DNA of 64,000 nt from an archaeon UBA583 (GTDB taxonomy: Archaea; Nanobdellota; Nanobdellia; Woesearchaeales; UBA583): the NCBI GenBank assembly GCA_002506365.1, contig DAXK01000025.1, positions 34,692-98,691 of the forward strand, read 5' to 3'. The notes below the pieces were generated by a model. That model was given only the letters and a program-made list of their open reading frames with translations. It had not been told where the DNA came from and searched no databases. A program made the position numbers and the translations under genes. Below are positions 24,202 through 28,123 of this stretch, in pieces (position 1 is the first letter of the stretch; each line of letters begins with the position of its first letter).

Positions 24202-24876
24202 TTATTTATATCTATTTAATTCATCACCAGCTAAAACTAAATGGTGTAACTCAACAGGCCTCCACTCATCAAAAACTAAATCAGCTGAAAGCCACCCACA
24301 AATTTCATCCGCATTTCCAATTGTAGCTGATAACCCAATAATTCTAATATTAGAATATTTTGCTTTAAAAATTGATAATAAAACTTCTAAAGTAGCACCC
24401 CTAGACTCATCATTAATTAAATGAACTTCATCTGCAATAACTAAACCTACATCATCTAAAAAATGACGTGAATGTCTAATCATACTATCTAATTTCTCAG
24501 AAGTTAACATTAAAACATCAAACTCATTTGCAAATCTTTCATCAGTTGCATCTCCAACAGAAATTTTTACACTAAAATCTTCGCCGTAAGTTTCTTTAAA
24601 TTCCCTATACTTTTCACTAGCTAAAGCTTTTAATGGCACAACATACAAAACTCTCTTTTTTTTATTTAAAATAGTATCAAGCATTGCTAATTCTGCAACT
24701 AAAGTTTTCCCCGAACCAGTCGGAGTACAAACAATTTGATTGTTAGAATTAGAAAATAAACCTTTTTCAATTGATTTAATCTGTGATGGTCTAAACTCTA
24801 AAATTCCTTGTTTTTTTAAAATATCTCCAATATTCTCAGGAATCTTAGAAAAAATATTATCATTATTTTTAGTCAT
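24202..24876 (-). CDS. Ski2/Hel308-like superfamily-2 helicase fragment (RecA1 domain only); a split gene or a remnant
   Basis: Motif I TPTGSGKT, Ia VVPLKALASEK, II DEVH, III SAT, then WRPVEL and a stop. Motifs IV-VI (RecA2) are absent. FtsY starts only 59 bp downstream. Confidence 0.65.
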   Translation of the reverse strand: MTKNNDNIFSKIPENIGDILKKQGILEFRPSQIKSIEKGLFSNSNNQIVCTPTGSGKTLVAELAMLDTILNKKKRVLYVVPLKALASEKYREFKETYGEDFSVKISVGDATDERFANEFDVLMLTSEKLDSMIRHSRHFLDDVGLVIADEVHLINDESRGATLEVLLSIFKAKYSNIRIIGLSATIGNADEICGWLSADLVFDEWRPVELHHLVLAGDELNRYK

Positions 24877-24999
24877 ACAACTAACTAAGCACTAAAAGTT
24901 TAAATATTTAACCTAATAAATATAAAGTTAAAAAACCATAAATAAATGCTAAAAATGAAATAAAAATATTTCATTTTTTAAAATATTAATAATTTAAAA

Positions 25000-25107
25000 A
25001 TGGAAACAGAAAATGTTAAAAATTGCGATAACTGTGGTGAAGAAAATTTGTTAACAAATTTAAAAGTAAGTTTAGGAGGAATGAAATTATGCCCTACATG
25101 TGAATAA
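25000..25107 (+). CDS. Zinc-ribbon mini-protein 1 (35 aa)
   Basis: My translation is METENVKNCDNCGEENLLTNLKVSLGGMKLCPTCE. It has the pattern CxxC-x18-CxxC. A TATA-like TTTTTAAAATAT lies about 20-30 nt upstream. Confidence 0.5.
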   Translation: METENVKNCDNCGEENLLTNLKVSLGGMKLCPTCE

Positions 25108-25161
25108 ATTATTATTATTCAAACATTTTTAAAATAAACTAAAAAAATCAAACTAAAAAAA

Positions 25162-25281
25162 ATGGAACACGAAATGAAACAATGTGATAAATGCGAAAGA
25201 CTAGTAAATATTCAAGACCTTAAACAAATTGAGGATAAAAGTGTTTGTAAAGATTGTCAAACAACTAAAAAACTAAATTAA
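25162..25281 (+). CDS. Zinc-ribbon mini-protein 2 (39 aa)
   Basis: My translation is MEHEMKQCDKCERLVNIQDLKQIEDKSVCKDCQTTKKLN. It has the pattern CxxC-x17-CxxC. TTTTTAAAATAA lies upstream. Confidence 0.5.
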   Translation: MEHEMKQCDKCERLVNIQDLKQIEDKSVCKDCQTTKKLN

Positions 25282-25414
25282 TTAATCAATATTATGTGAA
25301 ATAATAATTTTATATATTATTTTATTTAAAATAAAAACTGAAACAAAAATAAATAAATAATTCTAAAAAATCAACCTCAATAATATATAGTTAATTCTAC
25401 TACTTTTAATTACA

Positions 25415-25519
25415 ATGAAACAAATAGACAAAGTATGCGAAGATTGCGGGAAAACTTTTAAAGTGGCTCAGAAAGAATTATTTAAAACTAAAATTTGTAT
25501 GCCCTGTTTAAACAATTAA
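25415..25519 (+). CDS. Zinc-ribbon mini-protein 3 (34 aa)
   Basis: My translation is MKQIDKVCEDCGKTFKVAQKELFKTKICMPCLNN. It has the pattern CxxC-x16-CxxC. AATATATAG lies upstream. Confidence 0.5.
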   Translation: MKQIDKVCEDCGKTFKVAQKELFKTKICMPCLNN

Positions 25520-25614
25520 TTATAATTGCTTAAATTCTAAAACTACTACCTTAAATAATAAAATAATTAAAATAATTATACTAAAATATAATATAAAAAT
25601 AATTAAAATCTCAT

Positions 25615-26169
25615 TTAATTAAATTTAATATTATACTTTTTCTCAAAAATATTAAAAACAAATTCATAAAAACTTTCATTATTTGGAACAAATTTATTCT
25701 CATTCTCAAAATAAAATCTTTTTAAATCAACTAACTTAATTTTTTCAAGTTTTGAAACTTCATCATTTAAAATAAAATTAAACTTATCTCCAAAAACAAA
25801 ATAAGTATGTCTAAATTCATTCTCAAACCAACCACAATTTAACTCTTGTTTAAACCTAAAAATAAATTCCTCACCCAATTCATCTTCGCTAAAATCTAAA
25901 CCAACTTCCTCAATACATTCCCTAACAGCTCCTTGACGACCACTCTCCCCAGTATCAACATGACCTCCAACACACACATCATACTTTCCAGGATGACGAA
26001 CATTATCTCCACGAACTTGAAAATACACATAACCATTTTCAATAACCCAAATATTTGCTGCTCTATGACATAAATTATTTTCATGTAAATCAAAATAATC
26101 TGTAGTTTTTCCAGTAGGTTTATTATTTTCATCAACAATATCAATATCTGCATAAACTTGTTTTTCCAT
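25615..26169 (-). CDS. Nudix hydrolase (IDI-1/ADP-ribose pyrophosphatase-like)
   Basis: Complete Nudix box GGHVDTGESGRQGAVRECIEEVGL. Confidence 0.85.
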   Translation of the reverse strand: MEKQVYADIDIVDENNKPTGKTTDYFDLHENNLCHRAANIWVIENGYVYFQVRGDNVRHPGKYDVCVGGHVDTGESGRQGAVRECIEEVGLDFSEDELGEEFIFRFKQELNCGWFENEFRHTYFVFGDKFNFILNDEVSKLEKIKLVDLKRFYFENENKFVPNNESFYEFVFNIFEKKYNIKFN

Positions 26170-26212
26170 TTTTAAAAATATAACAAAAAAATAAATAATT
26201 ATTCTAAAATAA

Positions 26213-28123
26213 TTACATATTTTTCTTTAATAATGATGAAATTAATTTTCCATCAACTGCTCCAGCAAACTCCTTCATACACATTCCCATAACTGCACCA
26301 AATGGAGCTCCATTTGCTTTTAAAATAATCTCTTTAATTTTCTCTTCAACAGCTACTTCATCAACTGGCTCAGAAATTAAATTATTTTTTTCCAAATAAT
26401 CTTGTAAATTAGAAACCTCATTTAATCTGTCCTTATACAAAGATACAAAAATATCTCTAATTGAATTTTGATTAAAATTATTTTCCTTAATTGACTTTGC
26501 TAAATCTAACATTAAAGAATACTTAAAATCAACTGGTTCAATTTTATCTCTTTTTTTAATATCTTTAGCAAGGTCAAAAATAATTGAATACAATGCAGTC
26601 CCAGTTTTTGAAGATTCACTAATTAAAGAACTAACTTGCTCTTCAGAATACTTATCTAAAAAATCAACAACCTTTGAATTATCAACCCCAAAAGATTTAG
26701 ATAATCTATCAAGTTTTGTTGAATACAATTCAGGAATTGAAATTTCATCAACTAACTCAGAATCAAACTCAATTGTTTGAACATCAGTTTCTGGATACAT
26801 ACGAGCAGAACCAGGCATAGGTCTTGAAAATTTAGTAACTGTTCCCTTAGGATCAACTTGTCTAACTTCTTCTTCAACTGAACTAATTAATTGATTAATA
26901 ATATCTAACACATTATTTAATGATTTCTCAGCAATATTTTTCTCATTACAAATTAAAATAAATCCATCTTTTTCAGTAGTTCCAATTGAAGTTTTTACAC
27001 TCTCAACTTCCTCTGGAGTTATCCCATATTTAGGTAACTCATCTGAATGAAATAACCCCTTAATCATTGGAAAATGTTTTTTATTTCTATCTGAAACTTC
27101 ACTAGCAAATCTATGATTTTCTTGTAATTCATGACCTAAAATTCCTGTAAAATTATCTAACTTAATTGCTAAAACACTTGAATTTTTAATTTCTAAATTT
27201 GTTTTAACAACAGCAGATTCAGTATCTTTAAAAATTGAAGTCACATCAAAAATTTCTGAAGTTACTTTTTGAACTCCTCTAGATTTTAATTCATCAATAA
27301 TAGATAAATGAATTTTTTGTCTTCTCATCTCATCCTTTAAAATTTCAGGAATTAATTTTAAATTTTGAGTTCCCTTAATCTCAACTCTAGCTCCACCAAT
27401 AATTGAAACATTTAAATCTTGTCTAATTGTTCCAAGTCCACGTCTTGTTTGTTTAAAACTTCTTAAAATATCTCCAATAACAGTAGCTGCTTCTAAAGCT
27501 TGTTCCGGTGAATAAATTTGAGGTCCAGTTGTAACCTCAATTAAAGGAATTCCTTGTCTATCTAAACTATAAACATTATGTGAATCAAATCTTTCAATAG
27601 CCCGACAAGAATCCTCTTCTAAATTAATTCCTAAAATTTCAATTTTACCTTGTGAAGTTTCAAAATATCCACCTTGACCAACCATAGCAGTTCTTTGAAA
27701 ACCAGTTGTCACAGACCCATCAATAATTAACTTCCTCATAAATTGAACTTTATCAAAAAACTTTAAATTAAACATCTTACTAACTCCAATCACAGCATCA
27801 AGAGCAGGTTTACTAGGTCCTTTTGGAGGTTCCTCATCTAAATCCACTAAACACGCAATTTCATCATTAAAAATATACTCATTAAATTTTCCTTTCTTAA
27901 ATTCAGCTAAAGCAGCAACATCAATAGTTCCACTCTCCCCAGTTGAAAATCTTAATCTTCTTGAAATTTTTTTATCAAAAGAATCATTAGGCATAACATT
28001 ACAAGGACAGCAGCAAAATAGTTTTCCACTATTTAATTGTTGATGAATTTCTAAACCACAAAGCAGTCCCATTGCCTTATAATCTAACTCTTTTAAATCA
28101 TCTCTAAAAATTAATTTACTCAT
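26213..28123 (-). CDS. gatE: Glutamyl-tRNA(Gln) amidotransferase subunit E
   Basis: GLLCGLEIHQQLNSGKLFCCCPC, DEEPP, IDGSVTTGFQRT, LDRQGIPLIEVTT and RRGLGTIRQDLNVSI. At 636 aa it has the inserted domain and a YqeY-like tail, as in archaeal GatE. Confidence 0.85.
   Translation of the reverse strand: MSKLIFRDDLKELDYKAMGLLCGLEIHQQLNSGKLFCCCPCNVMPNDSFDKKISRRLRFSTGESGTIDVAALAEFKKGKFNEYIFNDEIACLVDLDEEPPKGPSKPALDAVIGVSKMFNLKFFDKVQFMRKLIIDGSVTTGFQRTAMVGQGGYFETSQGKIEILGINLEEDSCRAIERFDSHNVYSLDRQGIPLIEVTTGPQIYSPEQALEAATVIGDILRSFKQTRRGLGTIRQDLNVSIIGGARVEIKGTQNLKLIPEILKDEMRRQKIHLSIIDELKSRGVQKVTSEIFDVTSIFKDTESAVVKTNLEIKNSSVLAIKLDNFTGILGHELQENHRFASEVSDRNKKHFPMIKGLFHSDELPKYGITPEEVESVKTSIGTTEKDGFILICNEKNIAEKSLNNVLDIINQLISSVEEEVRQVDPKGTVTKFSRPMPGSARMYPETDVQTIEFDSELVDEISIPELYSTKLDRLSKSFGVDNSKVVDFLDKYSEEQVSSLISESSKTGTALYSIIFDLAKDIKKRDKIEPVDFKYSLMLDLAKSIKENNFNQNSIRDIFVSLYKDRLNEVSNLQDYLEKNNLISEPVDEVAVEEKIKEIILKANGAPFGAVMGMCMKEFAGAVDGKLISSLLKKNM

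Follow-up and report, generated by a model that had tools for sequence, protein, structure and literature searches.

One-domain zinc-finger micro-proteins are an established class in archaea, and 12 of the 16 deletion mutants tested had a phenotype (PMC6562870). The zinc micro-protein Brz controls transcription of its neighboring gene (PMC2253796). Here, three tandem open reading frames (ORF1, ORF2, and ORF3) with paired CxxC motifs are described at positions 25000-25519 of a 64,000-nucleotide (nt) stretch of DNA from the archaeon UBA583 (assembly GCA_002506365.1, contig DAXK01000025.1, positions 34,692 to 98,691 of the forward strand). This whole stretch is called the window. The trio resembles the haloarchaeal C(P)XCG proteins, as defined for Haloferax (PMC11241148), in being archaeal, stand-alone, shorter than 70 amino acids (aa), and essentially one Cys4 module. 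We conclude that the ORFs are probably three independent genes of clade-specific origin for one-domain Cys4 metal-binding micro-proteins, which may be binding modules.

All three ORFs are on the plus strand, in a 738-bp gap that extends from the ATG of a half-helicase gene (24876, minus strand) to the stop codon of a Nudix hydrolase gene (25615). ORF1 (25000-25107, +) corresponds to an acidic peptide of 35 aa, METENVKNCDNCGEENLLTNLKVSLGGMKLCPTCE, with a net charge of -3 and the pattern CxxC-x18-CxxC formed by C9/C12/C31/C34. ORF2 (25162-25281, +; 39 aa, MEHEMKQCDKCERLVNIQDLKQIEDKSVCKDCQTTKKLN) is near-neutral and contains CxxC-x17-CxxC (C8/C11/C29/C32). ORF3 (25415-25519, +) corresponds to a basic peptide of 34 aa, MKQIDKVCEDCGKTFKVAQKELFKTKICMPCLNN, with a net charge of +2/+3 and CxxC-x16-CxxC (C8/C11/C28/C31). 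The starts of ORF1 and ORF2 are 162 bp apart, and those of ORF2 and ORF3 are 253 bp apart. A sequence-only reading of the window had proposed three plus-strand mini-genes with CxxC-x16-18-CxxC in this gap, and their coordinates, strand, motifs, and spacing were confirmed. The start of ORF2 is uncertain, lying at either 25162 or 25174, where an in-frame ATG would give an alternative 35-aa product. GC skew is above zero only in 25000-25499, which fits plus-strand coding amid minus-strand genes. Rfam and ARAGORN gave no match on the three-ORF stretch.

The window belongs to a sequenced assembly (G000) of 1.39 Mb in 48 contigs with 25.6% guanine plus cytosine (G+C). The locus was compared in four lineages: the window (G000), L016, L015, and the G013 lineage (L002 and L017-L025). 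Exact-sequence look-ups brought in L015 and L016, which are both environmental, as well as nine contigs from the G013 lineage. G013, labeled 'Nanoarchaeales archaeon DT_72' by NCBI, is the closest GTDB relative, and its gene order is identical to that of the window, namely ftsY, the gene for the N half of the helicase Hel308 (hel308N), the three mini-ORFs, the Nudix gene, and gatE. The trio is intact in all four lineages, with lengths of 35, 39-40, and 34 aa, and 12 of 12 cysteines are retained. Insertions and deletions (indels) of up to ~100 nt are confined to the spacers, and the ORF1-ORF2 spacer ranges from 17 to ~160 nt in the four-lineage alignment. ORF1 has an invariant core, NCDNCGEEN...LKVSLGGM.LC.TC, and ORF2 a conserved end, T-x-K-[KQ]-[LI]-N. 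The invariant core of ORF3 is C-E-x-C-G-K...VAQKELF.TK.C.PC, and 22 of its 34 columns do not vary among the lineages.

Ratios of non-synonymous to synonymous substitution (dN/dS) were calculated pairwise among the lineages by the Nei-Gojobori method. The three ORFs concatenated gave 0.15-0.25, compared to ~0.9-1.9 in both off-frames. Taken singly, ORF1 gave 0.03-0.19 and ORF3 0.05-0.18, and the neighboring hel308N gave 0.05-0.21; ORF2, at 0.27-0.91, evolves faster than ORF1 and ORF3. For Fisher tests, G000/L016 and L015/L017 served as phylogenetically independent pairs, a topology backed by helicase identities; the tests showed non-synonymous depletion in ORF1 (p=3e-10), ORF2 (p=0.005), and ORF3 (p=4e-7). 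The sequence-only reading had left conservation and synonymous bias to be checked in relatives, and the check found frames, lengths, and cysteines kept, the opposite of the loss that would speak against genes. The retained frames and cysteines, together with the synonymous-biased substitution, therefore indicate that the trio consists of real protein-coding genes, which we consider very probable from these comparisons.

The composition of the genome does not account for the motif. Two CxxC pairs 8-30 residues apart were found in 12 of the 2807 ATG-initiated ORFs of 25-70 aa in the whole 1.39-Mb genome. Three of these 12 are the trio, six are known small zinc proteins (S27ae, L37e, L37ae, L40e, Spt4, and a Trm112-like protein), and three are further orphans. 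Ten Markov-1 random genomes of equal size and composition had a mean of 0.2 such ORFs each, so the real genome is enriched ~60-fold. Since 0.2 are expected per genome and three occur in 520 bp, the trio is not an artifact of composition. Other orphan cysteine-rich mini-ORFs of the genome were observed at G000:C28:7130-7246 (-), with 38 aa and KCCECG...CEAC; at G000:C28:19326-19508 (-), with 60 aa, a trio-like N-terminus, and a metallothionein-like cysteine-rich tail (CCMPCDCQICKCNGPCSNECKCHCC); and at G000:C42:87187-87315 (-), with 42 aa and a basic tail. The last of these has a 90%-identity cluster of seven members in JGI metagenomes.

The trio had also been described as hidden. This holds for ORF3, whose exact sequence was not found in a collection of 15 billion proteins, but not for ORF1 and ORF2, which are already present there as called proteins. 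The 35-aa ORF1 sequence has NCBI among its sources, and ORF2 is found as the 39-aa form (JGI/IMG) and as the 35-aa form from the second ATG (sources include NCBI). Relatives are scarce. The trio is carried by two of the 20 genomes of the GTDB genus (G000 and G013), and the other 18 are without it. Six-frame searches of 300 genomes of the order with the ORF1 and ORF3 profiles gave no credible match, and weak ORF2 matches in relatives were rejected as L40e and noise. Neither the ORF1 nor the ORF3 profile had a relative in JGI metagenome contigs, and the ORF1 profile, the only one used on IMG/VR viral contigs, had none there. G013 was the sole match in the profile scan of genome contigs. Among 1.84 billion representatives, the ORF3 profile had one true relative, P0017, which belongs to the same clade and carries a frameshift; the remaining 50 matches were multi-repeat C2H2 or FCS/TRASH-like proteins sharing only 'CExCGKxF' and were discarded. 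A word-indexed homologue search takes queries of at least 40 aa, longer than the window's own peptides; with the 40-aa G013 orthologue of ORF2, it returned only the query itself. The three are thus accessory genes restricted to a shallow clade inside a single genus of DPANN archaea (class Nanoarchaeia).

The genes on either side were identified through Pfam and NCBIfam, with GatE, FtsY, and Hel308 as archaeal markers near the trio. hel308N (24202-24876, -) is divergent from ORF1 and encodes 224 aa, the RecA1 half of a split Hel308 (positions 10-214 of 704 in the NCBIfam Hel308 model). The other half in this genome, from RecA2 to the C-terminus (559 aa), is on another contig, at G000:C6:16094-17773 (+). 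The Nudix hydrolase gene (25615-26169, -; 184 aa; PF00293, E=8e-10) is convergent with ORF3. ftsY is ~860 bp from the trio, with hel308N in between. The half-helicase and the Nudix gene had been taken as meaningful context for the trio, an idea that the comparison within the genus did not support. In 20 of 20 genus genomes, Hel308 comes as an N half (~221-224 aa in most) and a C half (~559 aa) that are not linked; 18 of these genomes lack the trio, so the half-helicase characterizes the genus as a whole and has no connection with the trio. In the 17 other genus genomes with readable flanks, no zinc mini-ORF, including fast-evolving positional orthologues, was found within ~1.5 kb of hel308N, and there is none beside the Hel308 C half. 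The Nudix gene is present in three of the 20 genomes and adjoins hel308N each time; in one of them, G012, no mini-ORFs lie between the two.

Comparison of the hel308N flanks (window 24877-28123; L046, L049, L054, L056, and L055) suggests how this arrangement arose. gatE abuts hel308N directly in three genus members and is separated from it by one small gene in a fourth. This adjacency suggests a clade-specific insertion at that site, in which the trio either arrived or originated along with the Nudix gene. In the simplest history, the common ancestor of the four lineages would have acquired the Nudix gene and the trio at the junction of gatE and hel308N. Neither an integrase nor a transposase is among the five flanking genes checked by Pfam and NCBIfam, a check that did not extend to flanking repeats. 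The trio is >4 kb from the nearest tRNA gene, and its G+C content is like that of the host.

Two noncoding segments of the locus are near-invariant in the four lineages. The promoter-like block 5' of ORF3 (25357-25400, +) contains ATAATTCTAAAAAATCAACC and TAATATATAGTTAATTCTAC, with one and two variable columns, respectively, and a variable 4 nt between them. Within this block, which stands in an indel-ridden spacer, the TATA-like AATATATA is at -33..-26 from the ORF3 ATG, the same geometry as that of the TATA boxes before hel308N in most other genus genomes examined. This is good comparative evidence that ORF3 has a dedicated promoter and probably a leaderless or nearly leaderless mRNA. The other segment is the divergent control region between hel308N and ORF1 (24877-24945). 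It contains a 12-nt palindrome, TTAAATATTTAA (24900-24911), at about -35..-24 from the hel308N ATG, and the distance from TATA to start is similar at hel308N in most other genus genomes examined. Since the geometry of TTAAATATTTAA matches the hel308N promoters of the genus, the region appears to be first of all a leaderless helicase promoter. It also holds a conserved candidate plus-strand TATA that faces ORF1, AAATATAAAG (24918-24927). The distance from the control-region box to the ORF1 ATG varies between lineages from ~27 to ~72 nt, which makes the role of the region for ORF1 uncertain.

In two lineages, ORF2 starts 17-25 nt past the ORF1 stop, so co-transcription of ORF1 and ORF2 is likely there. 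The spacers have a G+C content of ~21%, and TATA-like strings alone are therefore uninformative. Each ORF had been credited with its own TATA element 20-30 nt upstream; conservation bears this out for ORF3 and arguably for ORF1, but not for ORF2, which looks co-transcribed with ORF1 in those two lineages. An 86-nt repeat element was observed between ORF1 and ORF2 in L016 (L016:2111-2196), directly before the ORF2 ATG. It consists of two hairpins (AGCACA-T-TGTGCT and GAAATTTC...GAAATTTC) and a T7 run, and two tandem copies of it occur at G000:C2:5618-5782, directly before a thioredoxin gene. At both sites, the opening bases of the gene that follows (ATGGAACAC and ATGGTAC) are found again at the 5' end of the element, a pattern resembling a target-site duplication at the start of a leaderless gene.

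The sequence-only reading recognized no known system in the trio, and Pfam, NCBIfam, PHROG, and PADLOC likewise give no family or system match. The best Pfam scores, in bits against the respective cut-offs, were 16.0/27 for PF13248, 15.1/29.3 for PF13719, 15.6/34.4 for PF09723, and 17.6/24.9 for PF01258. Generic zinc-ribbon and zinc-finger models as a whole reached 15-19 bits against cut-offs of 25-34, and the best-matching family shifted between orthologues. Three of the four ORF2 orthologues match PF24458 (DUF7573) below threshold. The description of the three peptides as paralogous was not upheld. In hhalign comparisons, the three ortholog profiles gave probabilities of 2.7%, 8.3%, and 2.2%, and only 6-13 columns round the first CxxC were aligned. 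From their sequences, the peptides appear to be three separate orphan families, with homology between them unsupported.

Structures were modeled with AlphaFold2 from four-sequence alignments. The ORF3 model (mean pLDDT 86) has strands at 3-7 and 14-18 and a helix at 29-32, a predicted beta-hairpin with a short C-terminal helix; the second CxxC is at the helix start, closer in look to a treble clef or zinc finger. The ORF1 model (mean pLDDT 77.6) has strands at 6-8 and 15-17 and short bridges. The Foldseek neighbors in the PDB are almost all zinc modules, none of them significant: YacG, the FwdE C-terminal ribbon, HVO_2753 (6ydh), Nop10, L37e, and FCS, PHD, and RING knuckles. Sequence searches of the PDB with the trio gave C2H2 knuckle matches, bL32, and noise, with a 'small CPxCG-related zinc finger protein' (8q5b) among the weak neighbors. 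The net charges are conserved and distinct, at -3 for ORF1, ~0 to -1 for ORF2, and +2 to +3 for ORF3.

Two universal zinc proteins were considered as identities for the trio and rejected. One ORF3 orthologue touches the RpoP/Rpo12 family PF03604 at E 0.021, but the RCP.CG..(I/L)L.K tail is absent and ORF3 terminates three residues past its last cysteine. The genuine RpoP is at G000:C37:2772-2918 (-), has 48 aa and an RCPYC...VLKK tail, and is beside L37ae. Its first knuckle has the unusual form C-x4-C (CANPKC), and in three genus genomes, one of them closed, RpoP escaped a six-frame search with PF03604. As for Nop10 (PF04135), the peptides are too short for the C-terminal Cbf5-binding segment and the family search was negative; a six-frame PF04135 search of G000 and G013 found nothing at E<=0.1.

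These data suggest the following picture of the trio. Each peptide would place two CxxC knuckles on short beta-hairpins that clamp one metal ion, most likely Zn2+, and we lean toward metal binding. ORF3 would be transcribed from its own conserved TATA-type promoter, probably as a leaderless message, and transcription of ORF1 would begin in the divergent control region that it shares with hel308N; ORF2 may be on the ORF1 transcript or have its own start. By analogy with the haloarchaeal zinc-finger micro-proteins, the peptides could be small binding modules that tune the activity of a larger partner, a role as binding module or regulator that we propose tentatively. Of the three, ORF3 is the best candidate for nucleic-acid binding, since its basic charge would match a nucleic acid or an acidic surface; the acidic ORF1 would suit a protein partner. 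The complementary charges (-3, ~0, and +2/+3) are compatible with joint action. It is quite improbable, but conceivable, that the three products form a hetero-oligomeric zinc-ribbon particle, a multi-subunit factor made of micro-proteins alone. As a clade-specific regulator, it would act at the divergent promoter of hel308N or on an enzyme gained or rearranged at this site, either the split Hel308 or the Nudix protein; joint function of the products would then explain why three unrelated micro-protein genes stay together at the locus.

Several points weigh against reading the trio as metal-binding micro-protein genes. ORF2 is close to neutrality in one pairwise comparison (dN/dS 0.91), and conservation is known from four closely related lineages only. 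No Pfam score for the trio reaches its gathering threshold, and the best Foldseek match in the PDB, at E 0.76, is not significant. Of 14 purified Haloferax C(P)XCG proteins, five were zinc-free, so that metal content has to be measured and not assumed, and AlphaFold2 was unable to predict cysteine geometry (PMC11241148). No partner or target of the peptides is indicated by the evidence gathered.

Other explanations of the trio were weighed on the same evidence. The peptides may be accessory subunits or regulators of the split Hel308 N half or of the Nudix protein, or autoregulators of the shared divergent promoter, which we regard as unlikely. ORF1 and hel308N are divergent and have a conserved control region common to four lineages, the Nudix gene and the trio apparently arrived together, and small zinc modulators of nucleic-acid enzymes are known, such as YacG acting on gyrase, itself a weak structural neighbor; Brz is a precedent for a zinc micro-protein regulating its neighbor (PMC2253796). 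However, the promoter of the helicase itself accounts for the conserved block, all 20 genomes have a split Hel308 compared to two with the trio, no mini-ORF is near hel308N in the 17 others or next to the C half, and in G012 hel308N and Nudix are neighbors with no trio present. The trio as non-genes, that is, chance ORFs, a structured noncoding RNA, or fragments of universal zinc proteins (RpoP, Nop10, or ribosomal), is largely refuted and the most improbable explanation considered here. The AT-rich genome is indeed full of short ORFs, PF03604 is touched by an ORF3 orthologue, and that model detects no RpoP in three genus genomes. Set against this are the ~60-fold excess of the motif over chance genome-wide, the codon-periodic substitution with conserved frames and cysteines, and the lack of an Rfam match. 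The real RpoP, S27ae, L37e, L37ae, L40e, and Spt4 are all elsewhere in the genome, and absence from 18 of 20 genus genomes means that the trio is no universal component.

A role in metal handling, with the peptides as Cys4 mini metallochaperones that buffer or deliver Zn, Co, Ni, or Cu, is distinctly unlikely. It would fit the further orphan cysteine-rich mini-ORFs of the genome, one with the metallothionein-like tail (C28:19326-19508), and some haloarchaeal C(P)XCG proteins contain a non-zinc metal (PMC11241148). One Cys4 site per 35 residues is a low capacity, though, and there is no metal transporter or metal-dependent regulator nearby; the strongly conserved non-cysteine surface residues (LKVSLGGM and VAQKELFKTK) point instead to a specific macromolecular interface. 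We also consider it highly improbable that the trio reached its site between gatE and hel308N as cargo of a mobile or viral element, for example as micro-proteins for anti-defense or host takeover. The trio does look like a clade-specific insertion in a variable neighborhood, its families are orphans of narrow distribution, and there is faint similarity to PHROG families (Lar-like restriction alleviation, E 0.05; DksA-like, E 0.055) and to PF14354 (E 0.44). But the scan of viral contigs, which covered ORF1 alone, gave no relative, PADLOC had no match for the peptides, and neither the five flanking genes nor the distance to the nearest tRNA gene suggests mobility, although flanking repeats were not part of the search. 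The host-like G+C content and stable inheritance under purifying selection in four lineages also argue against cargo. Three independent micro-protein genes of clade-specific origin continue to be the preferred reading.

Small proteins of uncultured archaea are systematically missed in annotation, and ORF3 is missing from the 15-billion-protein collection despite selection as strong as that on its helicase neighbor. Given the tiny genomes of DPANN archaea and their dependence on hosts, lineage-specific genes kept by selection in this group are candidates for functions that separate close relatives. With four lineages, three orphan families, and an insertion site, the locus is a clean comparative case and a possible test case for micro-protein detection tools and metal-binding assays. 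The outcome is an annotation correction that reveals no new mechanism and opens no long-standing question.

Compared to known systems, the trio is closest to the haloarchaeal C(P)XCG class, where there are likewise several such genes per genome, most of them orphans. ORF1 (CDNCG) and ORF3 (CEDCG) have a first knuckle of the CxxCG form, as in that class. Unlike in the class, the second knuckle is a plain CxxC without glycine in ORF1 (CPTCE) and ORF3 (CMPCL), and ORF2 has no CxxCG at all (CDKCE and CKDCQ). With one CxxCG each in ORF1 and ORF3, none in ORF2, and two CxxC pairs in all three, the trio falls outside the C(P)XCG definition. It also differs from the haloarchaeal families in being much shorter (34-39 aa), in having a DPANN host with 25% G+C, and in placing three unrelated families in a row, and none of the haloarchaeal families resembles it significantly by sequence or profile. 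The generic C4 families of Pfam (Zn_ribbon_3, PF13248; Zn_ribbon_5, PF13719; Zn_ribbon_8, PF09723; zf-dskA_traR, PF01258) share with the trio the CxxC-x(16-18)-CxxC spacing and predicted beta-hairpin knuckles, with best E values of 0.004-0.02 across most of the peptide. Since the matched family changes by orthologue, the likeness concerns the knuckle rather than any one family. The gyrase inhibitor YacG is also a very small stand-alone Cys4 protein and is the second-best Foldseek neighbor of the ORF3 model (4tma_K, TMq 0.46). Unlike the trio, YacG is bacterial, has ~60 aa, and carries a functional C-terminal tail; there is no sequence similarity, and the structural match has an E value of 1.9 and a probability of 0.2. 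The likeness to YacG may thus serve as an analogy for mode of action only. A new system or mechanism is unsupported, and the trio is best filed as new orphan families within the archaeal class of one-domain zinc-finger micro-proteins.

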